Part shown: positions 10,123 through 29,733 of the stretch, one piece after another
Layout of the letters: each line of letters opens with the position of its first letter
Numbering within the stretch: position 1 is the first letter of the stretch
Assembly: GCA_963695095.1 (NCBI GenBank)
Contig: CAVOFT010000001.1
Span: 1,472,001 to 1,536,000, forward strand
Reading direction: 5' to 3'
DNA from: an uncultured bacterium
GTDB lineage: Bacteria > Krumholzibacteriota > Krumholzibacteriia > JACNKJ01
DNA length: 64,000 bases
The notes under the pieces: generated by a model
The model's input: the letters and a program-made list of their open reading frames with translations, nothing else
What the model was told of the DNA's origin: nothing
Databases searched by the model: none
Translations under genes and position numbers: made by a program

Positions 10123-12549
10123 TGCCCTGGCTCGTGCAGTCGCCGGGGCTGGTCTGCGGCGATGCCGCGCGGCGCCTGGAGTTCCCCGAACTGCTGGCGG
10201 AGCTCGCCGCGCGCGTGCGCTTCGCGCGCAGCGCGGCGGCCTTGACGGCCCTGACGCCGCTGGCGGAGCTGGGGGCCATCGAGGCCCGGCGCGCGCGCGT
10301 CGCCGCCTGGCAGCGCCTGCTCGAGGAAGGGCGCGAGCCCGAGCTGGAGGGACTCGTCGATCTCGGCGAGGGCATCGAGCGCTGCAAGACCCCGGGCGCC
10401 CAGCTGCCCGGCGAGGCCTTCTGGCAGCTCGCCCGCTGCCTGGGCGCCATCGCCCGCCTGGGCGACTTCCTCGCCGACGCCCGCCTGCTGGCGCCCGTCC
10501 TCCACGCGGACTGGGGCAATCCACCGGATCTGCGCGGCCTGGCCGGCGAGATCGAGCGCTGCGTCGACGAGGAGGGCCGCCTGCGGGACGGCGCGAGTCC
10601 CACCCTGGCCCGCCTGCGCGCGGCGATCCGCGAGAGCGAGTCGCGCGTGCGCGGGCGCCTGGACGCCCTCATCAAGGAGCGCCTGGCCGAAGGCGAGCGC
10701 GACCTGCGCCCACGCGTGCGCAGCGGTCGCCTCGTGCTGCCCGTGCGCCGCGAGCAGAAGAGCCAGCTGCCGGGCATCGTCCACGACGCCTCGGCCAGCG
10801 GCAAGACCCTCTTCGTCGAGCCGCTGGAGACCGTCGAGCTGAACAACGCGATCACGGCGCTGCTGGCCGAGGAGGCGCGCGAGTGCGCGCGCGTGCTCAG
10901 GGCGCTCACCGCCCGGGTCGGCGCCTGGGTGGATCCCATCCGCGCCTGCCTGGATGCCTTTCACCGGCTCGAACTGCCCCTGGCCGCCGCGCGCCTGGCC
11001 CGCGAGCGGGACTGGCAGTGGGCGGACTGGTCGCCGCCGGCCGAAGATCGCCTCGACCTGCGCGGGGCGCGGCATCCGCTGCTCGCGCGCTACTTGCCCG
11101 CCGGCGCGGCGCCCGTGCCGCTGGCGCTCGCGCTTGGCGCGGAGCAGCGCCTGCTGCTCGTCACCGGCCCCAACACGGGGGGCAAGACCGTCCTGCTCAA
11201 GACCCTCGGCCTGCTCGTGCTGATGAACCAGTGCGGGCTGCCCCTGCCCGTGGCCGAGGGCAGCCGCCTGCCGCTCTTCACGAGCCTCTTCGCGGATATC
11301 GGCGACGAGCAGTCCCTGCGCGATTCCCACTCCACCTTCAGCGCGCACCTCGCGCGGCTGGGGGAGATGGCGGCGGGCGCGGGACCGGGTGCGCTCATCC
11401 TCGTCGATGAGATCGGCGACGGCACCGATCCCGAGGAGGGGGCTGCGCTCGCGCAGGCCCTGATGGCCCACTGGATCGCCCGCGGGGCGCGGGCGGCCGT
11501 CACCACCCATTTCGGCGTGCTCAAGGGCTTCGCCCAGGGCGCGCCGGGGGCCGTCAATGCGGCGATGGACTTCGATCCCATCCAGCGGCGGCCCCTGTAC
11601 ACCCTCAGCCTCGGCGTGCCGGGGGCCAGCCGCGCGCTCGCCACCGCTCGCCGTCTGGGCATGGATGCCGACGTGCTCGCCGAGGCCGAGCGCCTGCTCG
11701 GCGCCGAGGCCATGCGACTCGAAAGCCTGCTCGAGCGTCTCGAGCGCGAGACGCAGGCGGCCGCCGCGGCCCGCGAGGCGGCCGAACAGCTGCGCGCCGA
11801 GCAGGAGGGCCTCGCCGCCGACTATCGCGATCGCCTCGCGCGGGTGCGCGCCCAGGAGCGCGCCATCCTCGCCGAAGCCCGCGAGCAGGCCGAGGGCTTC
11901 CTCGCGCAAGCTCGGCGTGACTTCGAGCAGGCCGTCCGCTCGCTGCGCGAGCGCGAGGCGGACCGGGAGAGCATCCGCGCCGGCCATGCCCTGCTCGAGA
12001 CCCTGGCGGCCCAGGCGCCCGCGCCGCCGCCGGCGGCTGAGCCGGGGCCTGTGCTCACCAGCTGGCGTGCCGGCGATCGCGTGCGCCTGCGCGCCACCGG
12101 TCAGACGGCGGAGATCCTCGAAGCGGCCGGCGGCGGCCGCCTGCGCGTCTCCCTGCGCGGGCTGCCCATGGTGCTGCCGCTCAGCGAGCTCAGCCCCCTG
12201 CCCGGCGGGAGCGAGGCGGAGGCGGCACGCCCGGCGGAGCGCTTCGCCGGCGTCAGCTACGAGGCCTCGGGTCCGGATTCCTACCGGCTCGACCTGCGCG
12301 GCATGCGCGCGGAGGAGGCGGCCGCGGCGATGGACGCCTTCCTCGACGCGGCCACGCTCGCGGGCTTCCACCTCGTGGAGATCCTCCACGGCAAGGGCGA
12401 GGGCATCCTGCGCGAGGAAGTGCGCCGGGCCCTGGCCCGGGATCCGCGCGTGGGGCGTTTCACGCTCGCCGATCAGAATCGCGGCGGCAGCGGCGTCACC
12501 GTGGCGCGCCTGGCGGGGGACCCGGAGCCCGCGGGGAGGCCGGCCGTGA
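10122..12549 (+). CDS. mutS2: MutS2 endonuclease with Smr domain (appears fused in frame to dnaG in this assembly)
   Basis: VHDASASGKTLFVEP, Walker A GPNTGGKT, STFSAH, DEIGDGTDP, Smr LDLRG...HGKGEG. Confidence 0.92.
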
Positions 12550-14387
12550 CTAGGCCCGATCCCGGCGCTGCCCAGAGCGATTTCAAGGAGAAGGTGCGCG
12601 CGGCCACCGACATCGTCGAGCTGATCGGCCAGTACCTGAAGCTGCGCCGGGCCGGGAGCAACTGGGTGGGCCTGTGCCCCTTCCATCACGAGAACAGCCC
12701 GAGCTTCAACGTGAACCAGGAGCGGCAGAACTTCTACTGCTTCGGCTGCGCGAAGGGCGGCGACGTCTTCAGCTTCGTCATGGAGCAGGAGGGCCTTGCC
12801 TTCCGCGAGGCGCTCGAGCACCTGGCGCGGCGGGCGGGGATCCCCATCGAGGCGGCCGGGGGCGGCAGCGGCGAGAGCAGCCGGGCCGAACTCTATCAGC
12901 GCATCAATGCCGCCAGCGCCGACTTCTATGGCCGCCAGCTGCGCGAATCGCCGGCCGCCGAGCGCGCGCGGGACTACCTGCGCCGGCGCGACGTGGGCGA
13001 GGAGGCCTGGCGCGACTGGGGCCTGGGCTACGCCGGGCAGTCCTGGCGCGACCTCCACCAGCAGCTCGCCCGGCAGGGCTTCCCGCCCGAGCGCTGCGAG
13101 GAACTGGGGCTCATCCGCCGCAAGGCCTCGAGTCCGGGCCACTACGACGCCTTTCGCAATCGTGTCATGTTTCCTGTCCGCTCGGTGGCCGGGCGGGTGC
13201 TGGGCTTCGGCGCCCGCGTGCTCGACGACAGCCTGCCCAAGTACATCAACTCGGCCGACAGCCCGGTCTACACGAAGAAGGCCATCCTCTACGGCCTGGA
13301 CCGCGCCTGGCGGGAAATCCGCCGCGCCAAGCTCGGCATTCTCGTGGAGGGCTACTTCGACGTGATCAGCCTGCATCTGGCGGGCGTCCCCCTGGCCGTC
13401 GCCGCCTGCGGCACCGCCTTCAGCAGCGATCAGGCCAAGCTCCTGGGCCGCTACACCGAGCGGGTCTGCGTCGTCACCGACGGCGACGCCGCCGGGCAGA
13501 AGGCGGCGGTGCGGGCGGCGGGCGTGCTGATCACCGTCGGCCTCAGGCCCAGCGTGCTCGCGCTGCCGGCCGGCGAGGATCCGGACAGCCTGATCCGCGC
13601 CGAGGGCGGCGAGGCCTTCCGCGAGCGGCTGCGCGGGGCGCCGGATTACTTCGACTACATGCGCGGCCTGGTCAGGGCCCGCGGCGACAAGCCGGCCGAG
13701 CGGGAGCGCGCCGTGCGCCGGATACTGGAGGACTTGACCGCTTTCTCCGAAGGCGACCTGCGCCTGGAGAGCCTGCTCGAGGAGCTCACGGCGGCCTTCG
13801 GGGTCGAGCGCACGGTGCTCGTGCACACCCTGCGCGAGACGCGGCGCCGCGCCGGCGACGGCAGGCGCGGGGCGCGGCGGCCGCCCGCGGCCGCCGGCGA
13901 GGCCGAAGCCGCCGTCGAGGCGGGCAGCCCCGAGCAGGAGCGCCTGGAGAAGCTGATGCTGGCCGTGCTGCTCGCTGCGGGTCCGGAGCGGGAGACGGTC
14001 TTCAGCCTGCTGCGGCCCGAGCACTTCGCCGACCCCTTGCGCGCCCGGCTCTACTCCGTGCTGGCGGCCCTGGGCCGGGCGCCGGACAGCCGGGAGCTGG
14101 GCGAGCTGTTTCCCGACCCGGCCGCGGCGCGGGCCGTCACCGAGCTGACCTTCCTGCGCCTGCCGGCAGGAAGCGCGCAAGATTGGGTGCGCACGAGCGC
14201 CCTGCGACTTAAATTGAAGCGGATGCTCGACCTCAACCGCGACTTCCAGGGCCGGGTACAGGCCCTGGAACTGGCGGGCGAGGAGGTCTCGGCGGATCTT
14301 CTCGCCGAGTGGCGACACGTGGGCGAAGCCATTCGCGGCCTGCGGGCCGAGATCGATCGCATTCTCGAAGCACAGAAGGGGTCCTGA
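12546..14387 (+). CDS. dnaG: DNA primase
   Basis: CHC2 zinc finger CPFHHENSPSF...CFGC, FRNRVMFP, KYINS, VEGYFDV, DGDAAG, DPD; own SD GGGGAGG before GTG at 12546. Confidence 0.95.
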   Translation: MTRPDPGAAQSDFKEKVRAATDIVELIGQYLKLRRAGSNWVGLCPFHHENSPSFNVNQERQNFYCFGCAKGGDVFSFVMEQEGLAFREALEHLARRAGIPIEAAGGGSGESSRAELYQRINAASADFYGRQLRESPAAERARDYLRRRDVGEEAWRDWGLGYAGQSWRDLHQQLARQGFPPERCEELGLIRRKASSPGHYDAFRNRVMFPVRSVAGRVLGFGARVLDDSLPKYINSADSPVYTKKAILYGLDRAWREIRRAKLGILVEGYFDVISLHLAGVPLAVAACGTAFSSDQAKLLGRYTERVCVVTDGDAAGQKAAVRAAGVLITVGLRPSVLALPAGEDPDSLIRAEGGEAFRERLRGAPDYFDYMRGLVRARGDKPAERERAVRRILEDLTAFSEGDLRLESLLEELTAAFGVERTVLVHTLRETRRRAGDGRRGARRPPAAAGEAEAAVEAGSPEQERLEKLMLAVLLAAGPERETVFSLLRPEHFADPLRARLYSVLAALGRAPDSRELGELFPDPAAARAVTELTFLRLPAGSAQDWVRTSALRLKLKRMLDLNRDFQGRVQALELAGEEVSADLLAEWRHVGEAIRGLRAEIDRILEAQKGS

Positions 14388-14389
14388 GC

Positions 14390-16150
14390 GTGAGCAAGTC
14401 CAAGACCAGCCGCATCATCGTCGCCCTCAAGAAGCTCGTCAGCAAGAAGAACTACATCCTCCACGACGACATCTACGAGCAGTTCTCGGAGGACTTCGAT
14501 ATCGATGCCGTGGACGTGGTCTACTCCCGCATCGCCGAGCTCGGCATCGAGGTCTTCGACAGCGAGGAGGAGGCCAAGACCAAGCTGCGCGCCCAGGAGG
14601 CGCGGGCCAAGAAGCTCAACGAGAAGATGAGCCAGGCCGCCGCCCAGAGCATGCGCTACGACGACCCCGTGCGCATGTACCTGCGCGAGATGGGCAAGGT
14701 GCCGCTCCTGGACCGCGAGGGCGAGATCGCCATCGCCAAGCGCATCGAGGCCGGCAAGCACCAGGTGCTCGAAGCGCTCTTCCGTTCGCCCTTCTCCGAG
14801 GCCCATGTCGATCAGTGGGTGGAGGCCCTCGCGAACGGCACGCTCAGCGTCGAGGACCTGATCCAGGTGGACACGGGCGGCTACCAGGAGCACCACACGC
14901 CCCAGAAGCGGGACAAGGCCACGGCCGTGCGCACGCTGCGCCGCCTGCGCAAGCTGGGCGAGGAGATCCTGGCCTGCGAGGAGAAGCTGGCCAGGGCCGA
15001 CACCGAGCGCAAGAAGCAGGCCGCCGAGAAGGCCCTGCAGACGCGGCGCGAATCCTGGCTGGAGTTGCTGCACGGGCTCAGCCTGCAGCCCAAGCGCGTG
15101 GACGAGCTGGTCCTCGCCCTGCGCGAGGTGCACGACGAGTTCCAGGCGGCGGCCAAGCAGGTGCACCACTACGAGAAGTTCCTCGGCATGGACTACGATG
15201 GCTTGCGCGAGACCATCGCCCGCATGAAGGACCGCGGCTGGAAGAACATCCAGCTGCGCGGCAAGGGGCGCTGGACGCTCACGGCGCTCGAGGACCTGCG
15301 CCGCAAGCAGTACGGCCTGCATCCGCAGCCTCAAGACCCTGGAGAAGGAGCGCGGCGTCACCCGCGAGCAACTCGAGGCGCTGCTCACCCGCGTCGAGCA
15401 GGGGGAGCGCCGCGGCGAGCAGGCCAAGAAGGAGATGATCGAGGCCAACGTGCGCCTGGTGATCTCCATCGCCAAGCGCTACACGAACCGCGGCCTCGAG
15501 TTCCTGGACCTGATCCAGGAGGGCAACGGCGGCCTGATGCGCGCCGTCGACAAGTTCGACTACCGCAAGGGCTACAAGTTCTCCACCTACGCGCACCTGG
15601 TGGATCCGGCAGGCGATCACGCGCGCCATCGCCGACCAGGCGCGCACCATCCGCGTGCCCGTGCACATGATCGAGGCCATCAACAAGGTGAGCCGGGCCA
15701 GCCGCAAGCTCATCCAGGAGTACGGCCGCGAGCCGACCCCGGAGGAGGTGGCCAAGTACCTCGCCTTCCCCGTGGAGAAGGTGAAGAGGGTCATGAAGGC
15801 CAGCATGGAGCCGATCAGCCTGGACCGGCCCATCGGCGAGGACGAGGACAGCAACCTCGGCGACTTCATCGAGGACACTGCACGCCGACAGCCCGGCCTC
15901 ACTCGGCCGCGCACTCGATGCTGCAGGATCAGACTCACCAAGGTGCTGTCCACGCTGACCCGGCGCGAGGAGAAGGTGATCCGCCTGCGCTTCGGCCTCG
16001 GCGACGGCACGCCCGCGCACCCTGGAGGAGGTGGGCACCATCTTCCAGGTCACCCGCGAGCGCGTGCGGCAGATCGAGGCCAAGGCGATTCGCAAGCTCC
16101 AGCACCCCAGCCGCGCCCGCAAGCTCAAGGGCTACGTGGAGAACTACTAG
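14390..16150 (+). CDS. rpoD: RNA polymerase primary sigma factor (several frameshifts)
   Basis: [52 protein letters not shown], region 4 [10 protein letters not shown]. Confidence 0.96.
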
Positions 16151-16163
16151 GCGTCAGTCCGGG

Positions 16164-16194
16164 GGCGGGCCGGGCAAAGCGGCCCGCCAATCTT
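16164..16194 (+). terminator. Hairpin after rpoD (putative terminator)
   Basis: GGCGGGCCG-7 nt loop-CGGCCCGCC followed by AATCTT. Confidence 0.55.
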
Positions 16195-16233
16195 GATTAT
16201 TCGGTCGATTACTCGCTAATTATGGCCTATCCT
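16193..16233 (+). promoter_or_regulatory. AT-rich promoter region of the cytochrome accessory operon
   Basis: Locally AT-rich; TCGATT-17-TATCCT, with a second TTGATT upstream. Confidence 0.45.
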
Positions 16234-16302
16234 TAGTGGGCTCGAACCCGGACTCCGCACCCGGCGCCGCCCTCCGGGCGGCCTCGCGCAGCAACGAAGG
16301 CC

Positions 16303-18495
16303 ATGGCCAGCCCCTCCCGCCAGCATCTTGCGCTCCCGTCCCGCCTCTGTGCGCAGGGGCTGCTCCTGGCCGCCCTCGCCCTCGCTTGGCCCGGCAGCGC
16401 CCGCGCCCTGGACGGCAAGCTCGGCTTCCGCCAGAGCCAGCAGGATGGCGGTTTCGGCGCTCAGGACTACAGCCTGCAGGTGATCACCCGCGATGCCTAC
16501 GCCCAGCAGCTGGTGGGCCTCTGGCCGGGCCTGTCCCTGCGCCTGGAGGCCCAGGTCCGGGATGAGGCCACGCAGAGCCGGGTCGGCGCGACGAGCTCGG
16601 CCTGGAATCAGCTCAATCGGCGCGCGGGCATGGCCCTGCGCTACGGGGACCCGCGCCTGCATCTCGAACTCCGAGCCAGCGGCCGCCGCCGGGAACAGGA
16701 GCCCGATCCCGGACCCCGTCTGAGCCAGGACCTCGGCCAGCTCGGCCTCTGGAGCCAGCTGCGGGCCGCTCGCTGGCTTCGCCTGCAGGGCAGCTGGCTC
16801 GAGACGCGGGCCTGGCGCGAGGAGGACGCCCTCGCCGACGTGGAGACCCGCGAATCCCTGCGCTCGGCCAGCGCCGAGAGTCCGCTGTCGATCGGCACCC
16901 TGCGCTACGGCTACTCCCGACAGGCCACCGAGAACCTCGCCCGCGGCAACCTGAGCGTCCACGCGAGCCACCTCGTCGGCTACGACGGCGGCTTCGGCTT
17001 CCAGGACCAGCGCGGCCGGGTGTCCCTGAGCGCCCGCGCCCGCCGCTTCCAGCAGACCCTGACCCAGAGCGAGCTGACGGGCCGCCTCCTGCTCGAACCC
17101 GCGACGGCGGGCCTGCGCATCGACGCCTCGCCGGAGGTGGACGATCCCCTCGAGGAGCCCCTGAGCCTGGTGCCGGCGCTCATCGATCTGGATCGCCGCA
17201 GCGCCACGGTGGTCGATCTGGGCGACGATGCGCCCGTCGGCCTGCAGCTCGGCGGCGACTACCGGAACCTGCAAATCGATCTCGGCGCGCCCACTGCCGT
17301 GGCGGCGGTGCTGCTCTACGTGGACCGCCGTCCCACCGCGCCCCAGCTCATGCAGTGGAGCCTCTACGTGGCCGAGGATCCCGAGGGCCGCCTCTGGACC
17401 CGCCACGAGGCAGCCAGCGCGAGCGCCCGCTATCGAGACTGGGACGAGGACCTTCAGGGCTGGGAGTTCACCTTGCCGGGCGAGCTCGTCCTGCGCCACT
17501 TCAAGCTCGTCAATGCGAAGCTGGGACCGGTGGAGCCCGAGCTGCGGGTCACCGAGATCGAGGCCTACACCGCGGAGACCTTGCCCGCCGGCGAGCGCCA
17601 GGAGACGAGCGACAGCCAGCGCCTGCAGGCGGGCCTCGACTACCGGCTCAGCCAGGACTGGCGCGTACGGGCGGACCTCGCGCTTCGTCTGCGCAACTAC
17701 GCGACGGGGCGGGCGGACCAGGACGATCGCAGCGAGGGCCTGGGTCTCTTCTGGGCCCGGGACGTTTGGTCCGCCGCCGGTCGGCTGGAATGGCGCCGTC
17801 TCGAGAGCGGCGGCCAGCTCGACAGCGACGTCGACACGCGCAGCCTTTCGCTGCGGCGGCGGCTGGCGGGCCGCCACGCCCTCAGCCTGCACCTCGATCA
17901 GCTGGCGGACCGGGGCCGCGGCGCCGATCGCCGGTCCCGGACGATCAGCCTGGGCAGCGAGTGGCAGTTCGCCCCCGGCCTGCGCCTGGATCAGCGGCTG
18001 AGCCACGGCTGGCTGCGCGACGAGGGGCAGAGCTTGAGCTCGCGCTCGCTCACCTCCTACACGGCCCTGCACAGCGTGCCCTTCAGCTGGCTCTTCCTGG
18101 AACTCAGCCGCGTGGATCGCTGGGTGGAGCGGGAGGCGGGCTACGGCTACTCGCGCTTCAACGACACGACGCTCACCCTCGGCTGGACGCCGGTGCCGCT
18201 GATCAGCCTGCGCAGCCACGTCGTCTACCAGGACCGCGGCAGCGGCGAGTGGCTGGTCAACCACAGCCTGGCGTGGACGCCCCTGCCGGGCGGGGACCTG
18301 TCTCTGCGTTTGAACGCCAGCCAGTTCTCTGATACTCGTGTAGATTCCCGCCAGAACGGCGCGGGCGCGACGCTGGCCTGGACGCCGCGCCCGCGGCTGC
18401 TCCTGGAGACCGGCGTGGACGCTCAGCGCTATCGGCGCCCGGAGGGCGTCAGCTCGCCGGTGAACGGCTTCGTGAAGGGCAGCCTCGCCTTCTGA
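16303..18495 (+). CDS. Outer-membrane beta-barrel protein with an inserted discoidin/F5-8-like domain
   Basis: Signal peptide ending ARA; alternating amphipathic strands; C-terminal VKGSLAF; central NLQIDLG...HFKLVN...VTEIEAY segment. Confidence 0.65.
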   Translation: MASPSRQHLALPSRLCAQGLLLAALALAWPGSARALDGKLGFRQSQQDGGFGAQDYSLQVITRDAYAQQLVGLWPGLSLRLEAQVRDEATQSRVGATSSAWNQLNRRAGMALRYGDPRLHLELRASGRRREQEPDPGPRLSQDLGQLGLWSQLRAARWLRLQGSWLETRAWREEDALADVETRESLRSASAESPLSIGTLRYGYSRQATENLARGNLSVHASHLVGYDGGFGFQDQRGRVSLSARARRFQQTLTQSELTGRLLLEPATAGLRIDASPEVDDPLEEPLSLVPALIDLDRRSATVVDLGDDAPVGLQLGGDYRNLQIDLGAPTAVAAVLLYVDRRPTAPQLMQWSLYVAEDPEGRLWTRHEAASASARYRDWDEDLQGWEFTLPGELVLRHFKLVNAKLGPVEPELRVTEIEAYTAETLPAGERQETSDSQRLQAGLDYRLSQDWRVRADLALRLRNYATGRADQDDRSEGLGLFWARDVWSAAGRLEWRRLESGGQLDSDVDTRSLSLRRRLAGRHALSLHLDQLADRGRGADRRSRTISLGSEWQFAPGLRLDQRLSHGWLRDEGQSLSSRSLTSYTALHSVPFSWLFLELSRVDRWVEREAGYGYSRFNDTTLTLGWTPVPLISLRSHVVYQDRGSGEWLVNHSLAWTPLPGGDLSLRLNASQFSDTRVDSRQNGAGATLAWTPRPRLLLETGVDAQRYRRPEGVSSPVNGFVKGSLAF

Positions 18496-18521: not shown

Positions 18522-19154
18522 ATGATGGCATGTGAAGGGCGCGAGAAGGGCCGACCGGCCAGGGCAGGGCGCGCGCAGCCGGCAGGCGGCCGCCTGCTGC
18601 CGAGCCTGCTCCTGCTCGTGGGCCTCGCGTCGGCGCTGGGCGCCTGCGCGGCCTCCGTGACGAGCTACCAGCATCCCGGGGTGGATCTGAGCCACGTCCG
18701 GCGCGTGGCCGTGCTGCCCTTCGCCAACCTCAGCGGCGACGAGTTCGCCGATGAGCGGATCGCCTCGCTCTTCCTCACGCGCCTCTTGCGCGCCCAGGTG
18801 GTGGAAGTCGTGGAGGCGGGCGCCGTGCGCGAGGCGCTCATCGCCCAGCGCTTGAGCGCCGGCGCGATCGCCACGCCCGAGCAGCTGGTCGCCCTGGGCG
18901 CCGCCCTGGGCGTGGATGGGCTCTTCGGCGGCACCGTCGAGGAATGCGGCCTGCTGCGCAGCAACCGCGAGTCCCTCAGCCAGGTCACCCTGAGCTTCAC
19001 CCTGACGGAGACCCAGCACGGGGTGCTGGTCTGGCGCGCCCAGACCCACGCCTCGAGCGCCTCCTTCTGGCGCCGGCTCTTCGGCACCGAGGCGCGCTCC
19101 CTGCACGCGGTCAGCGCGGAGGCCGTGGACCGCGCCCTGGGCACCCTGTTTTGA
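18522..19154 (+). CDS. Lipoprotein of CsgG/DUF799 (GNA1162)-like fold
   Basis: Lipobox LGAC; RVAVLPFANLS, LGAALGVDGLFGGTVEE, GVLVW. Confidence 0.7.
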   Translation: MMACEGREKGRPARAGRAQPAGGRLLPSLLLLVGLASALGACAASVTSYQHPGVDLSHVRRVAVLPFANLSGDEFADERIASLFLTRLLRAQVVEVVEAGAVREALIAQRLSAGAIATPEQLVALGAALGVDGLFGGTVEECGLLRSNRESLSQVTLSFTLTETQHGVLVWRAQTHASSASFWRRLFGTEARSLHAVSAEAVDRALGTLF

Positions 19155-20260
19155 GCCTGCGCGCCGGCATCCTGCTCCTCGCGGCGCTGCTGATGGCGCC
19201 CGCCCTGACGGCGCCCGCTCCAGCGGCTGCCGAGACCGGCGGGCTGCCCGCAGCGGCGCTGGTTCTCTTCCTGGACGCGGAGAGCGACGCGGCCCTGCCG
19301 GCGGCGCCGGCTCTCCTGCGCGAAACGGCCCGACAGGCGCTGGTGGCGGCCCTGGCCGCCCCGGGCCGGCGCCTGTGCGCCGGTGACGAGGTGGAGGGCT
19401 TGCTTGCCGACGCGCGCGTGCGCTCGCGCCGCGGACTGAGCCGCGAGGTCGTGGCGGCACTCGGCGAGCGCTGCGGCGCCGAGCAGGTCATCATCGCGCG
19501 CCTGGCCTGCGGCCAGGGCAAGCTCTTCCTCGCCCTGCGCGGCCTCGCGGCCGCCGACGGCCGCCTGCTCCAGGTTGCCGTCGCCGAGCAGGACCTCGCC
19601 GGCGGCGAGGACTGGCGGCGGGCCATCGGCGATGCCAGCCTCGAGCTCGCGGCCCGCTGGCAGGAGCCGGCGCCGGATGCCGCCGCGGCCGGCCTCCTGG
19701 TGCTGCCCGCGCGGGGGCCGGGCGTCGATCCCCTGCTCCTGTCGCTCGTCGAGGAGAGCCTGCTCGCGGAACTCCTCGCCCAGGGGCGCTGGCGCATTCC
19801 CGATCCGGCCCTGCTGGTCAGCGCGCTGCGGCAGGCCGGCATCCATCCGGCCAGCATCGGTGCCGCGAGCCGGCGCGCCCTGGCCGCCGAGCTGGGCGCC
19901 GAGTCCCTGCTGCGTCTGAGCGTGAGCGAGTACGAGGCCGGCCTGCCCGGCGCCGGGCTGCGCGGCGCCGGCAGCGGGGACATCGCGGACGAGGACGGGC
20001 GGCGCGGTAGCGCTTCCCGGCGCCCGGGAGCCTCGCCGGCCGCGCGGCAGATCGGTCGGCCGCTCCTGGCGACCCTGGAGCTCGTGAGCGCGGAGAGCGG
20101 ACTGCTCGGCCTGGCCGCCGAGCAGTACCTGCCGGCGCTGTCGCTGCGCGGGAGCTTCGGCCGTGCGCGGCGGCTGCCCTGGGCCGCGCGCTGCGCGGAG
20201 TTGACTGCACCCCTGGCCGCCGCCTTCGCCGTCGCCAGCGCCCCCGGGGGGCAGCCATGA
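19151..20260 (+). CDS. Exported protein with two CsgG/TolB-N-like repeats
   Basis: TTG start overlapping the upstream TGA; signal peptide; repeated pattern (ALGERCGAEQVII / ALAAELGAESLL). Confidence 0.5.
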   Translation: MSLRAGILLLAALLMAPALTAPAPAAAETGGLPAAALVLFLDAESDAALPAAPALLRETARQALVAALAAPGRRLCAGDEVEGLLADARVRSRRGLSREVVAALGERCGAEQVIIARLACGQGKLFLALRGLAAADGRLLQVAVAEQDLAGGEDWRRAIGDASLELAARWQEPAPDAAAAGLLVLPARGPGVDPLLLSLVEESLLAELLAQGRWRIPDPALLVSALRQAGIHPASIGAASRRALAAELGAESLLRLSVSEYEAGLPGAGLRGAGSGDIADEDGRRGSASRRPGASPAARQIGRPLLATLELVSAESGLLGLAAEQYLPALSLRGSFGRARRLPWAARCAELTAPLAAAFAVASAPGGQP

Positions 20261-20316: not shown

Positions 20317-22036
20317 ATGCTCAAGCGCTCCCCGCCTGTCCCGCCTGCTGCCCGCAGCCTCCCTGCTGGCGCTGCTCCTGTCCCTGGCCGCGGCGCCCGC
20401 TCCGCAGGACGGCGACGAGCGGCTGCTCGCCTGGGTCAACGGCGAGGCGATCACCCTCGACGATCTCGAGGCGGAGCTGAAGCGGCTGCCGGCGCCGGAT
20501 AGCGCCGCCACGCCGCCCGCGGCCACCGCCGTGCTCCGGCGGCTCGTGCAGGATCGGCTGCTGGAGCAGGAGGGCTATCGCATCGGCGCCGATGGCGAGC
20601 CCGCCGTGCGCAACCAGGTGCAGGATCTCCTGCGCCTGCGCAGCGTGGTCGCGCTGCTGGACTCGATCTCCGCGCCGGGCGCCGAGGAGGGCGCTGCCGA
20701 ACTGGACAGCCTGATGAGCAAGGAGAGCCGGCTCATGCATCTGGCACACATCCTCGTGGCCGAGGAAGGCACCTCCCGCGCCTTGCTGGACAGCCTGGCC
20801 GCCGGCCTGCCCTTCGCGGACCTGGCGCGCCGTCACTCCACCGACGGCAATGCGGCCCGCGGCGGGGATCTCGGCTGGGCGGCCGCAGGCGCCTATGTCC
20901 CCGAGTTCGAAACCGCGCTGGCGCCGCTGGCGCCGGGCGAGGTGTCCGGTCCCGTGCGCACGGAGTTCGGCTGGCACCTGATCAAGCTGCTCGAGGTCCG
21001 CAGCGAGACGGTGGGCCAGTCGCCCGCCATGCGCGAGGCCATGCACAAGACCCTCGAGCGCGAGCAGCGCATGGCCGCCGTGCGCGACTACGTGGCCGGG
21101 CTCCGGGCGCGCTACGGCGTCGCCGTCGACGACTCGCTGCTGGCGAGCCTCGACTTCGGCAGCGAAGACCCGGCGGTTCAGGCCGGCCTGCGCGAGAGCG
21201 ACGCAACGCTGGCCGTGCTGCCCACGGGGCGGCTCACCGTGCAGGGCCTCTACCGGCAGCTCATCTTCAAGTACTTCCACGGGCTGGCCGGGCGCCCCGA
21301 GGCCGCCAGTCTGCGCGACAGGGTCTTCCGCGAGTGGGTGGACGAGGCGCTGCTCAGCCACGAGGCCCGCATCCTGGGCCTGCCCGAGCGGCCGGCGCTC
21401 CGCGCCGAGGCGAAGCGCCTGGAGCGCTCGCTGCTCCGCGAAGAAGTCCTGAAGACCCTGCTGCTCGGCCTCTCGACCGCGGCGCCCGCGGAGGCGGAGC
21501 TGACGGCCTTCTACGCCGCCGATCCCGGCCGCTTCGCCGCGCCGGCGCGCGTCAAGCTGCGCAGCTTGCGCTTCGCCGCGCCCGAGAGCGCCCAGGGCTT
21601 TCGCGCAAAGCTCGAACAGGGAGCCCAGTTCAGCTGGCTCGCCGCGCGCGACCCCGCCGTGCTGGCCGGGCCGCCGCCCTTCGGCGAGGACTGGCTGGAC
21701 CCGGCGACCCTCGACCTGCCGGCTGCAGAGCTCGTGGAGGGGGCCGTGCTGGGTCCGCTCGCCCTCGAGGAGGGCTGGGCGCTGATCCTGGTCCAGGCCC
21801 GCGAGCGGGTGGAGCCGCCGCCCTTCGCCAGCTGCCGCGCCGAGGTCCTGGCGGCCTATCAGCGGGAGCAGAAGCAGGAGGCCATCCGCCGCGCGCTGAA
21901 TCGGCTGGAGCAGGCGGCCACGATCACGATGCTGCCGGCGGCCGAAGCGCGCGTCGCCGCGCGCCTGGCGGCACTCGGCGGGGGCGGGGCGGGCGGCAGC
22001 GGGAACGGCAATCAGCCCAGCGGAGGTCAGCACTGA
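20317..22036 (+). CDS. SurA/PrsA-like parvulin peptidyl-prolyl isomerase chaperone (frameshift near 20330)
   Basis: LAWVNGEAIT, HILV, FADLARRHSTD, GGDLGW, SGPVRTEFGWHLIK; a second degenerate rotamase domain follows. Confidence 0.85.
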
Positions 22037-25000
22037 TGAAGACGCGTGCAATCCCGGCCCAGCCCAGCGCTCGCCGCGCGGGCTTGCTCGGACTCGGGGC
22101 CCTGATCCTGCTGCTTGCCGGCATCGGGCTGCCGCGGCCCGCGGCGGCGCCGGGCAAGGGTCTGGGCTCTCGCGACTGCCTGGACTGCCACGAGGAACTC
22201 AAGCGCGAGCTCGGGCGCAAGCATGCCCACGCGCCCTTCGCCGGCAAGGACTGCGAAGCCTGCCACAAGCCGCATGGCCTCATGGGGGGCCTGATCCTGA
22301 AGACCGAGATCAATACGCTCTGCCTGGAGTGCCACGCCGGCGTCAAGGACGCGCGCGAGGCGGCCGTGCTGCATGGTCCCTTCGCGAAGGGCAAGTGCAC
22401 GGACTGCCACGATCCCCATGGCTCGGGCGAGGCGGGGCTCCTGCCCGGCAAGGGCGCCGGGGCCTGCACCGGCTGCCACGACGGCGCCGCCTTCACGGGC
22501 GCCACCCTGCACGCGCCCCTGCGCGACGGGGATTGCGCGGCCTGCCACGCCGGCCATGGCGCGCCCGAACCGGGCCTGCTGCGCAAGCCGGCGACGGCGC
22601 TCTGCCTGGACTGCCACGCGGCCGACCAGGCCCTGCGCAGCCGCCATGGCGGCGTGGACGTGAGCGCGGCGGCCTGTGTCAGCTGCCACGATCCCCACAG
22701 TGCCGCGACGCCGGCCCTGCTCGCCCGCTCCATTCACCCGCCGGTGGCCGACCTCGACTGCGCGAGCTGCCACGAGCTGGATGCAGCCGGCCGCGTCTCG
22801 CCGAGCGGGGATCCCGCCGCCAGCTGCGCCGCCTGCCACGACGAGGGCGAGCGGCGACCGTCGGTACCGCACCCCGCCTTCGCCGACGGCGCCTGCACGG
22901 ACTGCCATTCGCCCCACGGCAGCAGTCAGCCGGCCCTGCTCAGGGATCGTGAGGATCGGCTCTGTCTCGATTGCCACGACGACCAGGGGCGGGACTTCGC
23001 CCGCGCGCACACGCACGCGCCGGCGGCCGCAGGCCGCTGCAGCGCCTGCCACGACGCCCATGGCGCCGAGCAGCCGGCGCTGCTGCGGCAGGAACTCGGC
23101 GCGCTCTGCCGGTCCTGCCATCAGGAAGCGAGCATCACCGCGGGCCCCGGCCAGCACGAGCACAGCGCCACGGCCAGGCGCGCCTGCACGACCTGCCATG
23201 AGCCCCATGGCTCCGAGCAGCCGCAGCTGCTCAACGCCCCGGCGGGCGATCTCTGCCTGTCCTGCCACCTCAAGATCAAGTTGCTCAACGCCTCCGCGCA
23301 TCCCCATGCCGTCGTGGCCAGCGGCGACTGCCTCGCCTGCCACGAAGCGCACGTGGGCACGACGAGCGCGCTGCTCAAGGCGGCGCCGGGCACGCTCTGC
23401 CTGAGCTGCCATGCCGACTTCGCCCAGGCGCCGGCGGGGGGCAGCGTGCATCCACCGGCGGCGGCGGGCGATTGCCTGGACTGCCATGAGCCCCACGGCG
23501 GCGAGCGGCCGGCCATGCTGAGCCAGGCGCCGGAGGCGCTCTGCCTCGCTTGCCACGACACCGGGGCCGGGCTGCCCGTGCCGCATGCGCCGGTGGCCGG
23601 CGGCCGCTGCACGGAATGCCACGATGCCCATCGGGCGCCCGGCCAGCACTTGCTGGCGGCGCCGCCGGCGCTGCTCTGCGCCGGCTGCCATGCGGAGACG
23701 GCGGCCAGCGAGGGCAAGGTCTCCCTGCACCCGCCGGCAGCGGCGGGCGATTGCCTGGACTGCCACCTGCCGCACGGCGGCGAGGCCAAGGGCCTGCTCA
23801 GCCAGGCGCAGCCGGCCCTCTGCTTCGATTGTCACGACGGCGGACGGCGCCGCCTTCCGCGGCGCCCACCTGGGCAGCGCGGACCCCGGCTCGCTGGACT
23901 GCATGGGCTGCCACGAGCCGCACACGGCCGCCGCGCCGGCGCTCATGCATGCCAAGGCGCACCCACCCTTCGCCGATCGCGACTGCCAGGCCTGCCACAA
24001 GGCCGGCGAGACGGCGGTGCCGCGGGGTGTCTGCCTGGACTGCCATGACGATCCCATTGCCGGCCGCAAGCACGTCCACGCACCCGTTGCCTCGGGCGAC
24101 TGCCAGGCCTGCCACAACCCCCATGCCGCCGCCGGTGAGCATCTCTTCGCAGGCAGCGTGGGGGAGAGCTGCTATGGCTGCCATGAGCCCCAGGCCCTCG
24201 CCCCGGTGCCGGCCCTCGCCCACGCGCCGCTGCGCGAGGGGCGCTGCGAGGCCTGTCACGACGGCCATGCCTCGAATCAGCCCGCGCTGCTGCGCCAGAG
24301 CGCGGGCACGCTCTGCCTGAGCTGCCATGCCGAGCTGGGGGACCCGGCTCAGGGCAAGGCCCATGCGCCCGTGGCCCGGGGCGATTGCAGCGTCTGCCAC
24401 GACGCCCACGGCAGCGCGGAGCCGGCCATGCTGAAGAGGGCGCTGCCCGGACTCTGCCTGGACTGCCATAAACTCGGCGCCGCGGGGATGTCCACCGCCC
24501 ATCGCGGCTTCGATCTCGCGGGTGCGGACTGCGCCGGTTGCCACGAGCCCCACCGCTCCCGGCTACCCGCCCTGGGCCGGCAGGGCTCCGTCCACACGCC
24601 CTACGCCGAGAGGCGCTGCGCCGACTGCCATGCCGGGAGCAAGGCGCCGGCGAAGCCCGAGCGGGAACTCTGCCTGGGTTGCCACCGCAGCCTCGGCGAG
24701 GAATTGAAGACGGGCCGCGTGCATCCGGCGCTCGAGCAGGGGGCGGCTTGCAGCAACTGCCATGTACCGCACGCTGCCGCCCAGCCCTGGCTGCTAGCCA
24801 AGGAGCAGGGCGCGCTCTGCGGCCGCTGCCATGCGGAGCAGCAGGACGCCCTGGCGAGCGCGGCTTTCGCGCACCCGCCCGGACCCCGGGGGCTCTGCGC
24901 AAGCTGTCACGACCCCCATGCCGAATCCACCGAGCAGCTGGGACCGACGCCCGAGCTCTGCAGCAAGTGCCACGATTTCAGCAAGCACGTGAGCCATCCG

Positions 25001-25156
25001 CTGGGCGCCGGCGTGCTCGACCCGCGCACTGGCGAGGAGCTGGGCTGTCTGAGCTGCCACGCCGCCCACGGCTCCGTCCAGAAGTACTTCCTCCTGGACG
25101 ACCCGCACGGACGGCTCTGCGTGCAGTGCCACACGGACAAGATCCGCAGCCGCTAG
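22036..25156 (+). CDS. Giant paired-CxxCH multiheme cytochrome c, 42 heme-binding motifs, ~1039 aa (frameshift near 23840)
   Basis: Signal peptide; 24 CxxCH counted before and 18 after the frameshift; repeat unit HxP..CxxCHxxH..LL..LCxxCH. Confidence 0.92.
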
Positions 25157-25450: not shown

Positions 25451-26583
25451 ATGGAGTCCAGGCCGATGTCCAGCCGATCCATTGCTCGCCTGCTGCTCGT
25501 CCTCATCCAGGTTCCGCTCATCGCGATGCCCGCGGCAGCCACCTGGGTGATGGACTACGCGGGACAACTGTCACCGAATTTTCACGAGCAGGCCTGCAAG
25601 CGGCCCGTCGGGGTGAGCTACGCGCCGACGGGCGATGAAGCTCTGCGTCACCGATGCCGGCGAGCGCAGCCTGCGCGTCTACTCGGGCGAGGGCATCTTC
25701 ACCTTCGCGACCGGGGGCGTGGCCGAACTCGCACAGCCCGGCGACGCCCTGCTCGACGCGATGGGCGGCTTCGTGCTTCTGGACAGCCACAGCGGGCTCG
25801 GCCGCACCCTGCGCCGGCTGGACTATCGCGGCGAGCCGCAGGCCTTCAGCGTCGAGCGCCCCCGCGCGGACTGGAGTCCCCAGCATCTTCTGCTCACTCG
25901 CGACGGCGGCCTGGTGACCGTGGACAACGCGCACCGGCTGCTGTGCAAGCACGACGGCGCCAGCGGCGCCCTGCTCTGGAGCCGCGAGAGTTGTCGGCGG
26001 CCCCGAGGACGTAGACCGCGATCTGGGCCTGGGTCGTCCCGCTGAGACAGCCGATGGCCGCCTCTATCTGCCCAGCGGACTCCTGCACCGCGTGCTCGTG
26101 CACGACGGCGAGGGTCAGCCGCAGGGCGCGTTCGGCCGCTTCGGCTCCGCCCGCGGGCAGTTCGTCTTCCCCGTCGGCGTGGCGATCGGTCCCGAGGGCA
26201 CCGTGCTCGTGCTGGACCGCCTGCGCCATGCGATCCTGCTCTTCGATGCCGAGCAGCATTTCCTGGCCGAGTACGGCAGCTTCGGCGGCCGTCCGGGCCA
26301 GTTCTACCACCCGAACGCCATCGCCGCGATGCCCGATGGCCGCGTCGTCGTGACCCAGGGTTACCTGGGCCGCGTCCAGAGCTTCCGGCTCTACGACGCG
26401 AGCGAGCGGGCCGAGGCCGCCCACTCTGGAGCGCCGGCCTGGCCCTTCGGTCGCGAGCAAACCGTCACTCGCCACGATGTACCAAGGGGGTGCAGCCTTT
26501 CGGTGCCGGCAGCCGGCGCCAACCAAACGCATGCTATCGACTTTTTCCCGCAGTGTCTCCTAGTCCTGAACCCAACATCATGA
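25451..26583 (+). CDS. Exported NHL-repeat beta-propeller protein (two frameshifts, near 25635 and 26000)
   Basis: Signal peptide; FGSARGQFVFPVGVAI, GGRPGQFYHPNAIA. Confidence 0.8.
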
Positions 26584-26593
26584 GGTAACCGCA

Positions 26594-27697
26594 ATGAGAC
26601 TGTTCAAGCTCATGGGCCTCGCTGCCGCTCTGGTCCTCGCGTCCAGCGGCGCCGCGCTGGCCTTCCACGACGGCGGCGTCGCCGACTGCCAGGGCTGCCA
26701 CACCATGCACAACAGCATGGACGGCGAGCAGGTGGCCGACGTCGCAACCGGCAACGCGTACCTGCTCATCGACGGCAACTCCAGCGACACCTGCCTCAAC
26801 TGCCATGCGGCCTACGGCCAGTTCCTCGGCGGCACGGGCTACGGCCCGGGCGGCGACTTCTACTGGCTCACCAAGACCTACTCCTGGGATGCCCACGGCA
26901 GCACCGTGGAGAGCTCGGGCGACAGCCACGGCCACAACGTCATTTCGCCGGCCTATGGCCTGGCCGAGGACATGACCCTCAGCGAGGCCCCGGGTGGCGA
27001 CTTCCTGTCCACCTACCTGCGCTGCACGAGCTGCCACGATCCCCACGGCAACCAGAGCTTCCGTCTGCTCTACGGCACCGCCATGGGCCCGGTCTACAAC
27101 GGCGGCCGCTATGACTTCGACAGCGATGCGCCCGAGGCCAAGGGCAACAGCCGGCGCACCTACGTCGGCGGCGGCGGCAACGAGACCAACGCTCGCCACA
27201 CCGTCTACAAGTCGGGCATGAGCGAGTGGTGCGCGAACTGCCACACCACCTTCCACTCCGACAACACCAACAACTTCGTGCACCCCACGGGCGAGAACCT
27301 GGGCTCGACGATCGCGGCGGCCTACAACGCCTACATCAGCACGGACGAAGTGGTGGGCGGCGATCCGGCGACCTCCTACTGGGGCATCGTGCCCTTCGAG
27401 GCCGTCAACGTGGACCTGGAGACCGTCAGCACGACCAACAACACGCAGGGTCCGGGCGGCACCGATCAGGTGATGTGCCTGTCCTGCCACCGCGCGCACG
27501 CCTCGGCCTTCGGCGACGCGGGCCGCTGGGACTTCGGCGAGACCTTCATCGCGGAATCCCATCCCCAGCCCACGGACACCGGCTGGACGCAGGAAGACGC
27601 GGACAACATGTACTATGACTACACCTTCGTCCACAACCAGCGCTCGCTGTGCAACAAGTGCCATGTGAAGGACCTGGGTGATGCCCCTTTGGAGTAG
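26594..27697 (+). CDS. omcS: OmcS/OmcT-family hexaheme cytochrome c (nanowire-type)
   Basis: Signal peptide then FHDGGVADCQGCHTMHNS; CLNCH, PGGDFYW, GHNV, APGG, CTSCHDPHG, GMSEWCANCH, HP, YNAY, PFE, CLSCHRAHASAF, QRSLCNKCHVKD; six CxxCH in OmcS order. Confidence 0.92.
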   Translation: MRLFKLMGLAAALVLASSGAALAFHDGGVADCQGCHTMHNSMDGEQVADVATGNAYLLIDGNSSDTCLNCHAAYGQFLGGTGYGPGGDFYWLTKTYSWDAHGSTVESSGDSHGHNVISPAYGLAEDMTLSEAPGGDFLSTYLRCTSCHDPHGNQSFRLLYGTAMGPVYNGGRYDFDSDAPEAKGNSRRTYVGGGGNETNARHTVYKSGMSEWCANCHTTFHSDNTNNFVHPTGENLGSTIAAAYNAYISTDEVVGGDPATSYWGIVPFEAVNVDLETVSTTNNTQGPGGTDQVMCLSCHRAHASAFGDAGRWDFGETFIAESHPQPTDTGWTQEDADNMYYDYTFVHNQRSLCNKCHVKDLGDAPLE

Positions 27698-27771
27698 TGG
27701 TCACGGGAATTCCCCTCGGCTTCTAGCGAGGGGGCGGCCTTGAGGTCCCCGTGACCTCGATGGACATCTGG

Positions 27772-27801
27772 CGGGCGGCTCCGCGAGGAGCCGCCCGTTT
27801 T
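27772..27801 (+). terminator. Rho-independent terminator after omcS
   Basis: CGGGCGGCTCC-GCGA-GGAGCCGCCCG-TTTT. Confidence 0.85.
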
Positions 27802-27819
27802 CGTACCCACCCCTCGCGC

Positions 27820-27848
27820 TTGACGCCCGCGCGCGCAGCGCCTAGCCT
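27820..27848 (+). promoter_or_regulatory. sigma70 promoter of the tRNA gene
   Basis: TTGACG-17-TAGCCT, 8 nt before the tRNA. Confidence 0.65.
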
Positions 27849-27856
27849 GGGCTGAC

Positions 27857-27929
27857 GGGCCCATAGCTCAGTGGTGAGAGCAGACGACTCATAATCGTTG
27901 GGTCGCAGGTTCAAATCCTGCTGGGCCCA
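27857..27929 (+). tRNA. tRNA with CAT anticodon, most likely tRNA-Ile2 (lysidine); CCA not encoded
   Basis: GGGCCCA/TGGGCCC acceptor; GACGA-CTCATAA-TCGTT anticodon arm of ileX type; GCAGG-TTCAAAT-CCTGC T arm. Confidence 0.93.
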
Positions 27930-27960
27930 CTGGCCGTTCACCCCCTTTGTCGCGGTGCGC

Positions 27961-28671
27961 ATGCAAAACAGCGAGCAGCTCCTGGCCCTCTATCACCTCG
28001 ACCGCCGCCTGGACTTCATCCTCCGCCGTCTCGCCGAGATTCCGGGCGCGCAGCGCGCACTGCAGAAGGAGCGCGCGGTGCGCGAGGCGAGGCAGCGGGG
28101 GCGCGAGCAGGCGGCCGCCGAGCTGGTGGAAGCGCTCCGGCGGCTCGAACGGGACAGCGCGAGCCTGGCCGCCGAGCGCCGTCGCCTCGAGACCCAGCAG
28201 AGCGCGGTGACCGACATGCAGGCCCTGGCCGCCAGCGAGCATCAGCTGGCGCGCTGTGACGAGCGCATTGCCGGCGTGGAGGCGACCATCCTGGTCAAGC
28301 TCGAGGCCCAGGAGATCCACGAGCGGGAGCTCAGCTTGCGCGCGGCGCGGGAGGCCGAGGAGGCGCGCGCCGCCGCCGCGGAGCTCGCTGCCCTGGCCGG
28401 CGAGGCGGCCGAGTGCGCAGCGGAGCGGGACCAGGCCCTCGCCGAGCGCGAGGCCACGCTCGCCGCCATGCCCGCCGCCGACGCCCGGCTCTACCGGCGC
28501 CTCTTCGGCAACCATGGCCATCGCAGCCTGGCCGGCCTGCGCGGGGACGCCTGCGGCGCCTGCGGCGCCGCGCTGCCGCCCCAGGAATTGCTCGAATTGC
28601 GCAAGGACAACCGCGTGCTCAGCTGCCAGGGCTGCGGACGCCTCGTGCTGCGCGCGGAAGGGGAGGCCTGA
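27961..28671 (+). CDS. Coiled-coil protein with C4-type zinc ribbon (DUF164-like)
   Basis: Long coiled coil; C-terminal CGAC...CQGCGRLV; typical context before RNase H and rnpB. Confidence 0.85.
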   Translation: MQNSEQLLALYHLDRRLDFILRRLAEIPGAQRALQKERAVREARQRGREQAAAELVEALRRLERDSASLAAERRRLETQQSAVTDMQALAASEHQLARCDERIAGVEATILVKLEAQEIHERELSLRAAREAEEARAAAAELAALAGEAAECAAERDQALAEREATLAAMPAADARLYRRLFGNHGHRSLAGLRGDACGACGAALPPQELLELRKDNRVLSCQGCGRLVLRAEGEA

Positions 28672-29301: not shown

Positions 29302-29662
29302 GGAAGCGAACCGGATGGTCGCGGAGCTCGTCTCCGAGGAAAGTCCGGGCTCCACAGGGCAGGGTGCTGGGTAACTCCCAGGGGAAGCGATTCCACGGAA
29401 AGTGCCACAGAAAACAAACCGCCCGCTTCATCGCGAGATGGACGGGTAAGGGTGAAAAGGTGAGGTAAGAGCTCACCGGGCGTCCGGCGACGGCGGCCGC
29501 ACGGTAAACCCCACCCGGAGCAAGACCAAATAGGGGAAGAGAGGCGGCCCGCCTCGTTCGACTCCCGGGTAGGTCGCTCGAGGCCGTCGGTAACGGCGGT
29601 CCTAGATAAATGGCCATCCCTCCCCACGGGGAGGACAGAACCCGGCTTACAGGTTCGCTTCC
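29302..29662 (+). ncRNA. rnpB: RNase P RNA, class A
   Basis: GAGGAAAGTCCGGGCTC, AGTGCCACAGAAAA, GGTAAACCCC, ACAGAACCCGGCTTA; terminal P1 GGAAGCGAACC/GGTTCGCTTCC. Confidence 0.97.
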
Positions 29663-29733
29663 ACTTTCTGCCCGCCTGGGCGCCGCGCCTGCCCGGAACG
29701 GTGACGAGCCTTGCCTCTAGCGGAGGAGCACCC

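Follow-up and report, generated by a model that had tools for sequence, protein, structure and literature searches.

The gene considered here is an intact, ATG-initiated open reading frame (ORF) of 367 codons at positions 26594..27697 on the forward strand of a 64,000-nucleotide stretch of an uncultured bacterium (contig CAVOFT010000001.1, positions 1,472,001 to 1,536,000; hereafter the window). It encodes a full-length member of the OmcS family of hexaheme cytochromes, with the OmcS fold, and it stands as the last gene of a conserved, operon-like block that comprises OscE-, OscF-, OscG- and OscH-like genes, a 42-heme cytochrome, an NHL-repeat protein and the hexaheme itself. From the gene content we consider it probable that the product is the wire-type hexaheme of an osc-like extracellular electron-transfer cluster in a GC-rich, Krumholzibacteriota-like bacterium (genome 3.64 Mb, two contigs, 70% GC). 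A filament is the most likely form of the protein in our estimation, a view held with moderate confidence. An earlier note on this stretch, made from its letters alone, had argued for polymerization from a single histidine; the adjacent osc-like cluster appears to be the strongest support for a filament role, better than that residue.

Homology of the product to OmcS is beyond chance, because a phmmer search against all PDB sequences returned one distinct match, OmcS of Geobacter sulfurreducens (6ef8/6nef), at E 2.3e-53, with query residues 24-360 on chain residues 1-407 in two stretches that cover the whole mature protein. Pfam and NCBIfam offer no OmcS-specific model, and only the generic paired-CXXCH domain passes the cut-off on the hexaheme. 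An AlphaFold2 model built from a 122-sequence alignment (predicted local distance difference test 91.4, predicted template-modeling score 0.86) has 6ef8_A as its sole significant Foldseek match in the PDB (E 7.2e-25, TMq 0.78, TMt 0.71, 34% identity), the runner-up standing at E 3.3; AlphaFold2 training postdates the OmcS deposition, and the model is for that reason not fully independent of the OmcS structure. As a reference within the Geobacter family we used the omcS region (L094) of genome G021, whose OmcS is the PDB chain (938 bits, 407/407). By blastp the hexaheme is 35% identical to this OmcS over 435 columns (E 4.5e-66), 36% to the OmcT of the same genome and 37% to its OscC, which is marginally the closest of the three (221 bits). 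The earlier note had called the protein an OmcS homolog, and sequence search, model and fold comparison all agree with it.

Removal of the putative signal peptide leaves 344 aa, one more than the approximate 343 of the earlier note, and in the PDB alignment the mature OmcS chain 6ef8_A has its residue 1 opposite precursor residue 24. The mature N-terminus reads FHDGGVADCQGCHTMHNS and places a histidine at mature position 16, as the note had said. The six CxxCH motifs, also correctly reported, have their motif histidines at mature positions 13, 48, 125, 194, 276 and 334, which align with OmcS positions 13, 51, 144, 243, 332 and 404. The C-terminal motif QRSLCNKCHVKD, at which the note had let the chain end, is present and is followed by seven extra residues, LGDAPLE. 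Relative to the 407 residues of mature OmcS the net deficit is 63: the heme 1-2 interval is shorter by 3 residues, the 2-3 interval by 16, the 3-4 interval by 30, the 4-5 interval by 7 and the 5-6 interval by 14, with 7 gained at the C-terminus. The largest loss is thus the loop after heme 3 that had been described as missing. The strongly acidic character seen earlier holds as well, with 43 Asp and Glu against 14 Lys and Arg and an isoelectric point (pI) of 4.66, that of mature OmcS being higher at 6.64. A GAGG sits 8-11 nt 5′ of the ATG.

To what extent do the histidines of the protein speak for polymerization? We aligned the query with 102 full-length family representatives (103 sequences in all), one per 50%-identity cluster, each with at least six CxxCH motifs and at least 330 aa; the clusters used came from the top 150 among 845 that reached E <= 1e-3. 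Every one of the 103 sequences keeps the 12 Cys and 6 His of the CxxCH motifs, and exactly six other His columns are conserved, at mature positions 2 (101/103), 16 (95/103) and 91, 128, 207 and 279 (103/103 each). The remaining His columns of the query hold His in 1-64 of the 103 sequences, the best of them being positions 89 (64/103) and 198 (49/103). A direct alignment pairs query His 2, 16, 91, 128, 207 and 279 with OmcS His 2, 16, 110, 147, 257 and 335, so that all six family-conserved positions map onto OmcS; OmcS His 53, 63, 139 and 309 have no counterpart in the query. According to the available text of Filman et al. (PMC6584659), all 12 axial ligands of OmcS are His, 11 of them from the same subunit and one, that of heme 5, from the neighbor, and the hemes are stacked in motif order. 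The conservation pattern and the 12-His count together suggest that all six candidate distal ligands are present in the query. Position 16 we take to be the inter-subunit ligand of OmcS, the residue number given in the earlier note and reportedly by Wang et al. 2019.

The numbers of hemes and of conserved distal His are equal at six, and His16 follows the heme-1 ligand by just three residues, so that one heme would not be completable within the chain: His16 should lie at the end of the stack away from heme 5, and no spare intramolecular ligand seems to be at hand. An intermolecular heme contact is thereby suggested as a property of the whole family, a property that would be silent on whether the contact builds a homopolymer or not. 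His16 is also found in OmcT and OscC of G021, two proteins for which wire formation is not demonstrated as far as the account in PMC12977616 extends. Because the residue occurs in 95 of the 103 family sequences as well as in OmcT and OscC, His16 alone cannot carry the statement that the protein can polymerize, and the reading of it as a special retention with that implication has to be given up.

The neighborhood is more telling. An omcS-companion (osc) cluster is known in G. sulfurreducens (Shen et al. 2025, as relayed in the accessible portions of PMC13194489, PMC12977616 and PMC13712944), and the available text of PMC13194489, citing Shen et al. 2025, gives the osc genes roles in the folding of OmcS (OscH), in its secretion (OscE/F/G) and in its morphology (OscD). 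The letters E to I are our own assignment, with the count anchored on oscC=GSU2501 and oscI=GSU2495, which that same portion of PMC13194489 supplies. The core of the cluster has a counterpart upstream of the hexaheme gene (Table 1). The OscE-like protein has no Pfam match, and a profile of its homologs from the fetched loci reaches the OscE-position ORF of G021, likewise 730 aa long, with E 6.9e-76 in round 1; its nearest ESM-Atlas clusters by features (0.98-0.99) are 683-729-aa proteins automatically named outer membrane, a lead only. The OscF-like lipoprotein matches the 199-aa ORF at the OscF position (blastp, 33% over 165 aa, E 2.4e-26), and the OscG-like profile recovers the OscG-position ORF of 397 aa, at E 7.2e-7 in the first round and 2.6e-77 in the second. 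The OscH-like prolyl isomerase and the 578-aa ORF at the OscH position are related by blastp (E 1.7e-11) and by profile (E 1.2e-144). The two frames of the giant cytochrome hold 24 and 18 CxxCH motifs, with Pfam Paired_CXXCH_1 at E 1e-130 and 2e-74, and are 34% identical over 606 aa to the 26-heme ORF at the OscI position (blastp E 1e-102). Lastly, the NHL profile retrieves the ORF just upstream of omcS in G021 (E 5.9e-68), the ORF at the OscD position being reached from round 2 only.

Two operon signals bind the hexaheme gene to this block, namely a gap of 10 nt between the end of the NHL ORF and its own start, and a strong hairpin 3′ of the gene. The RNA segment 27698-27815 folds at -67.4 kcal/mol (z -4.15, 0/200 shuffles as stable). 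A simple promoter and terminator scan of 26300-28000 found nothing, the hairpin being missed because its T run counts only 4 T. Beyond the tRNA-Met gene that borders the cluster downstream lie unrelated housekeeping genes; among the side observations there is a bacterial class A RNase P RNA at 29303-29665 (319.7 bits), between an RNase H-like gene and recJ.

Table 1. Features of the hexaheme gene and of the osc-like cluster, in window coordinates
Feature	Position	Strand	Remarks
OscE-like outer-membrane protein	16303..18495	+	730 aa, signal peptide, C-terminal ...SLAF
OscF-like lipoprotein	18522..19154	+	210 aa
OscG-like protein (~350 aa; lipoprotein)	19199..20260	+	start uncertain; listed ORF 18944..20260
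OscH-like PpiC-type prolyl isomerase	20531..22036	+	501 aa as listed; Pfam Rotamase/Rotamase_2/Rotamase_3, E ~1e-20
Giant multiheme cytochrome (OscI/OscJ-like)	22030..25156	+	two frames, overlap ~23585-24048
NHL-repeat beta-propeller protein	25451..26583	+	three frames (25451.., 25635.., 26092..); Pfam NHL E 3.3e-7, last piece
OmcS-family hexaheme cytochrome	26594..27697	+	367 aa precursor, 344 aa mature
Signal peptide	26594..26662	+	23 aa, Sec-like, ends A-L-A; predicted cleavage between ...GAALA and FH
Codon of mature His16 (CxxCH-x-x-H, heme motif 1)	26708..26710	+	His in 95/103 family sequences
C-terminal tail after ...CHVKD (LGDAPLE; clade pattern xGDAP + aromatic/Leu)	27677..27694	+	
Terminator-like GC-rich 13-bp hairpin, then GUUUUCG	27770..27800	+	operon end
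tRNA-Met (CAT)	27857..27930	+	downstream cluster border

The association of hexaheme and neighbors extends well beyond this genome. From a scan of species-representative genomes we took the best 80 of at least 617 stretches that encode relatives of the hexaheme, which gave 77 loci labelled Krumholzibacteriia, Eisenbacteria, Gemmatimonadota, Zixiibacteriota, Ignavibacteriales, Calditrichaeota, Acidobacteriota, Nitrospirae, Desulfobacterota, Geomonas, Geobacter and Anaeromyxobacter. By tblastn (E <= 1e-5) the NHL gene is recovered in 53 of the 77, the giant cytochrome and the OscF-like gene in 51 each, the prolyl isomerase in 36 and the 730-aa outer-membrane protein in 27, and the full series in the order of the window in 16. 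Profiles place the NHL, outer-membrane, OscF/G-like and isomerase genes in 48-63 of 78 loci, OscE-like homologs being found in 54. Some loci without neighbor matches are short contigs; several long ones (L024, L025, L037, L062, L069, L073 and L075) represent additional, unlinked copies. The cluster has undergone more than one rearrangement, since in two Gemmatimonadota-labelled metagenome-assembled genomes (MAGs; L012 and L036) the whole OscE-to-NHL block is inverted and lies on the opposite strand upstream of the hexaheme. In the OscE-like protein itself, residues ~290-420 form a strongly conserved middle segment, with invariant positions that include G317, G318, D319, R321 and N322 and W352...K401 V403; the segment is common to the Geobacter counterpart and distinct from the C-terminal barrel-like part.

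A recurrent variation is a tandem second OmcS-like gene, present in 12 loci that share the upstream cluster (L004, L005, L008-L011, L013-L015, L017, L019 and L027), ~200-400 nt 3′ of the hexaheme and 36-56% identical to the query. By the criterion of a 250-aa high-scoring segment pair it is absent at this position of the window and in L016, L018, L028 and L029. The earlier note had counted a single copy without an omcT-like paralog, which holds for the window; elsewhere in the genome there are two further hexaheme matches of 40-42% identity, at C1:3043996-3044913 and C2:23321-24358 (C1 and C2 being the two contigs). Both represent a single locus, at C1:3043633-3045195 (L002) and C2:22997-24358 (L003); its two versions share 89% identity along 3.4 kb, with 49 gap openings, and contig C2, of 29 kb, may be a strain-level variant of a section of C1. 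The paralog is OmcS-like, has CxxCH-x-x-H and bears an additional, seventh heme motif C-terminally; in the C1 copy only five CxxCH are in frame, a frame change having removed the last two heme motifs. It is flanked by thiol-peroxidase-like and subtilase-like ORFs (labels from a reading of the translations). Because it is 50-55% identical to the tandem second copies of relatives where matched (9 loci), the partner clade is present in this genome and unlinked.

The wider genome contains a CcsA/CcmF-type cytochrome c assembly gene and ~29 open frames with at least two CxxCH motifs. As to its affiliation, the RecJ encoded in the window is nearest, among named relatives, to proteins of MAGs labelled Latescibacteria (73% identity) and Krumholzibacteriota (64%), with a fall to 41% outside a tight group, in agreement with the labels on relatives of the cytochrome. 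A second giant multiheme cytochrome, with 20 and 16 CxxCH in two frames, occupies C1:1612491-1616437, ~76 kb beyond the window, and an OscB-like sequence (C1:1629857-1632304) follows ~13 kb past it. A crude look for a PpcA-like small triheme cytochrome met no frame of 60 to <190 aa with at least two CxxCH, which in an indel-rich assembly is no evidence of absence.

The short, acidic form of the protein is not peculiar to this gene. A word-indexed protein search gave at least 4019 proteins with E <= 1e-5 among 8000 candidates scored, and the best 120 of these at least 4019 matches are 64-92% identical to the query with a median length of 367 aa; the nearest is of equal length and 92% identical. 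The few named among the best 120 are labelled Krumholzibacteriia/Krumholzibacteria or Eisenbacteria. The 102 representatives, by comparison, are 340-524 aa long, only five being shorter than the query. The close homologs are acidic throughout (median pI 4.9, range 4.3-6.2; OmcS 6.6, family median 6.0). A second mark of the group lies at the C-terminus: after the final ...CH.KD, a tail of the pattern xGDAP plus an aromatic residue or Leu dominates among the query and its 120 close homologs, and 86 of the 102 family representatives stop at KD, 3 residues after the last CxxCH.

We placed the query in a maximum-likelihood tree with 112 rows (quick IQ-TREE search, LG+G4, SH-aLRT support; the root arbitrary, set at the midpoint for drawing only). 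The query clade (7 rows, support 100) has as its sister a second short-form clade (7 rows, support 99), to which the other paralog of the genome belongs, and the two join as a clade of 15 rows with support 96. OmcS and OmcT (support 98) fall together with OscC within one long-form clade of 66 rows (support 97), and the query lies outside it. The query is therefore a member of the family and not an OmcS orthologue. Judging from these homologs, the short acidic form is a large clade in Krumholzibacteriota, Eisenbacteria and Gemmatimonadota MAGs, not an oddity; it is found in MAGs labelled Fibrobacteraceae as well.

How might such a protein reach the cell surface and work there? In the scenario that we favor, the precursor would be exported by Sec and cleaved after ALA, and its six hemes would be loaded in the periplasm. 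Folding would be aided by the prolyl isomerase, followed by passage through the outer-membrane protein and lipoprotein module. Subunits would then polymerize head to tail as in OmcS, His16 completing the bis-His ligation of the neighbor's heme 5, so that the hemes would run as one continuous chain, fed by the giant periplasmic cytochrome. The thinner wire with a different surface chemistry that the earlier note imagined would be speculative. A bolder version of our proposal, somewhat doubtful, is that the short clade may form a nanowire type of its own, with a minimal ~37-kDa subunit devoid of the OmcS surface loops, the xGDAP-aromatic tail at the heme-6 interface and a 42-heme periplasmic feeder.

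Several observations weigh against a filament. Its function would be transferred across a deep split, at 35-37% identity, and the sequence features used are shared by proteins that form wires and proteins that do not. Within the cluster, profile comparison with G021 found neither an OscB counterpart nor one of OscD, the heme-binding propeller; elsewhere in the genome there are OscB-like sequences at C1:485985-488321 and C1:1629857-1632304, and for OscD weak matches only (C1:1134106-1134591). The reading frames of the giant cytochrome and of the NHL gene are interrupted in the assembly. Furthermore, in OmcS the subunit end at heme 6 meets the next subunit, and the clade tail, which starts 3 residues past the heme-6 ligand, could either extend or block such an interface.

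Alternatively, the hexaheme may not polymerize at all and may serve as an electron carrier, a monomer or small oligomer, secreted or exposed at the surface through the osc-like module, that would be reduced by the 42-heme cytochrome and would pass its electrons on to minerals, shuttles or partner cells, as may be the case for OmcT and OscC in Geobacter. We regard this as unlikely. Only OmcS itself is a known wire former, the role of GSU2501 (oscC) being left open in the available part of PMC12977616, and the query resembles OmcS (35%) no more than it does OscC (37%) or OmcT (36%) and stands outside their common clade; the conserved tail by heme 6 could cap the stacking face. What speaks against a carrier is, on the one hand, the count of six distal His for six hemes, one of them unable to reach its own heme 5 if the OmcS order holds, so that a monomer would leave one heme without a sixth ligand, and, on the other, the conservation of a dedicated barrel, lipoprotein and prolyl isomerase module with the gene across phyla. 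The hexaheme might instead dock end to end, through its His16-heme contact, with the seven-heme paralog or the giant cytochrome, forming a short defined conduit or a mixed filament, and here the tandem second gene of 12 loci, the second-clade member elsewhere in this genome (50-55%, 9 loci), its CxxCH-x-x-H with one extra heme motif and the sisterhood of the two short-form clades (support 96) all fit. This hetero-assembly nevertheless strikes us as quite improbable, given that full-cluster relatives such as L016 and L018 show one copy within the fetched flanks and that the paralog here is unlinked, beside the thiol peroxidase-like and subtilase-like ORFs.

The broken frames invite a further explanation, to which we assign only a very slight chance, namely that the cluster is decaying and non-functional and the intact hexaheme a remnant. 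The giant cytochrome is in two frames and the NHL gene in three, and six of the seven relatives examined (L007, L010, L011, L016, L018 and L029) have single ORFs for both, with cytochromes of 1077-1147 aa (1480 in L011) that bear 42 CxxCH and NHL proteins of 341-410 aa. The damage is, however, not confined to the cluster. The essential rpoD (sigma-70) at 14309-16236 is split over at least three frames, with regions 1.1/1.2 in 14309..15670 and later regions in 15435..16196 and 15655..16236, relA/spoT is broken in the window, and a 1421-aa ORF at 10122-14387 joins MutS2 domains (MutS_V, Smr) to a complete DnaG (zinc ribbon, catalytic core, Toprim), by either indel read-through or an unusual fusion. 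Since rpoD too is affected, the frame breaks are probably indel errors of a two-contig, probably long-read assembly, real decay being the alternative. Moreover, the two cytochrome frames together keep 42 CxxCH as in the intact relatives, and the hexaheme has the same length as its nearest relative at 92% identity.

Among public sequencing runs none contained half of the sampled words of the hexaheme gene, the best reaching 0.26. Contigs of three sediment RNA libraries from different studies and of one bioreactor DNA run align to the ORF, mostly at <95% likeness. One of the RNA libraries (X3) contributes three near-identical short pieces, at 27093-27244, 27333-27501 and 27472-27632, with 2-3 differences each, a hint of presence in an RNA library and no proof of transcription.

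Should the protein polymerize, conductive OmcS-type wires would extend to uncultured FCB-group bacteria common in sediments and soils, beyond Geobacter and its relatives, and the short form, which wraps the same six hemes in 15% less protein, would lend itself naturally to structural studies and engineering as a minimal scaffold. If the short clade forms its own nanowire type, it would be the OmcS-type wire with the smallest amount of protein per heme and would bring cytochrome nanowires to a superphylum without cultured electroactive members. Shen et al. 2025 reportedly found OmcS homologs and the assembly cluster to be widespread, to go by the title and by citations of that work. The gain here is incremental: one more well-documented locus, a clear case that wire formers are not distinguished by His16, and a C-terminal tail, specific to the clade, where the subunits are likely to meet. 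That OmcS homologs and assembly machinery are widespread is already published, according to the available text of PMC10954620.

Set beside OmcS (GSU2504, PDB 6EF8/6NEF), the query has its six CxxCH motifs in an identical order and adopts the OmcS fold (TM 0.78). Both proteins begin with FH.GGVA.C.GCHTMHNS directly after the signal peptide, contain QR.LCNKCH.KD near the C-terminus and possess the six distal His that the family conserves, position 16 among them, and each gene has an NHL gene directly upstream. It differs in being 35% identical, 344 aa long against 407, shorter between every pair of heme motifs and more acidic (pI 4.7 against 6.6); it has an extra, conserved C-terminal tail of 6-7 residues, and a well-supported branch separates it from OmcS, OmcT and OscC. 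OscC (GSU2501) and OmcT (GSU2503) resemble the query as cluster-linked hexahemes with the same conserved His set, and GSU2501, in the available account of PMC12977616, is likewise a hexaheme that travels with the assembly block; unlike the query, both are long forms (405-410 aa mature, pI 6.6-7.0) that group with OmcS.

The osc cluster of G. sulfurreducens has its counterparts here for OscE, OscF, OscG, OscH and OscI/J and for the NHL gene upstream of omcS, and the E-F-G-H-I core order is kept. In contrast to Geobacter, where they lie upstream, the hexaheme and NHL genes stand here at the downstream end; OscI and OscJ correspond to one 42-heme protein, OscB and the heme-binding OscD are not in the cluster, and the tandem omcT-like copy is lacking. 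A more distant parallel is the OmcE tetraheme nanowire of Geobacter and Desulfuromonas, in which, according to the accessible part of PMC12307469, a His of the neighboring subunit ligates one heme of the insulated chain. The likeness is one of principle, that of an insulated heme chain with an inter-subunit His, in a protein of four hemes and of unrelated sequence and fold that gave no match in the phmmer and Foldseek searches of the PDB with the hexaheme.

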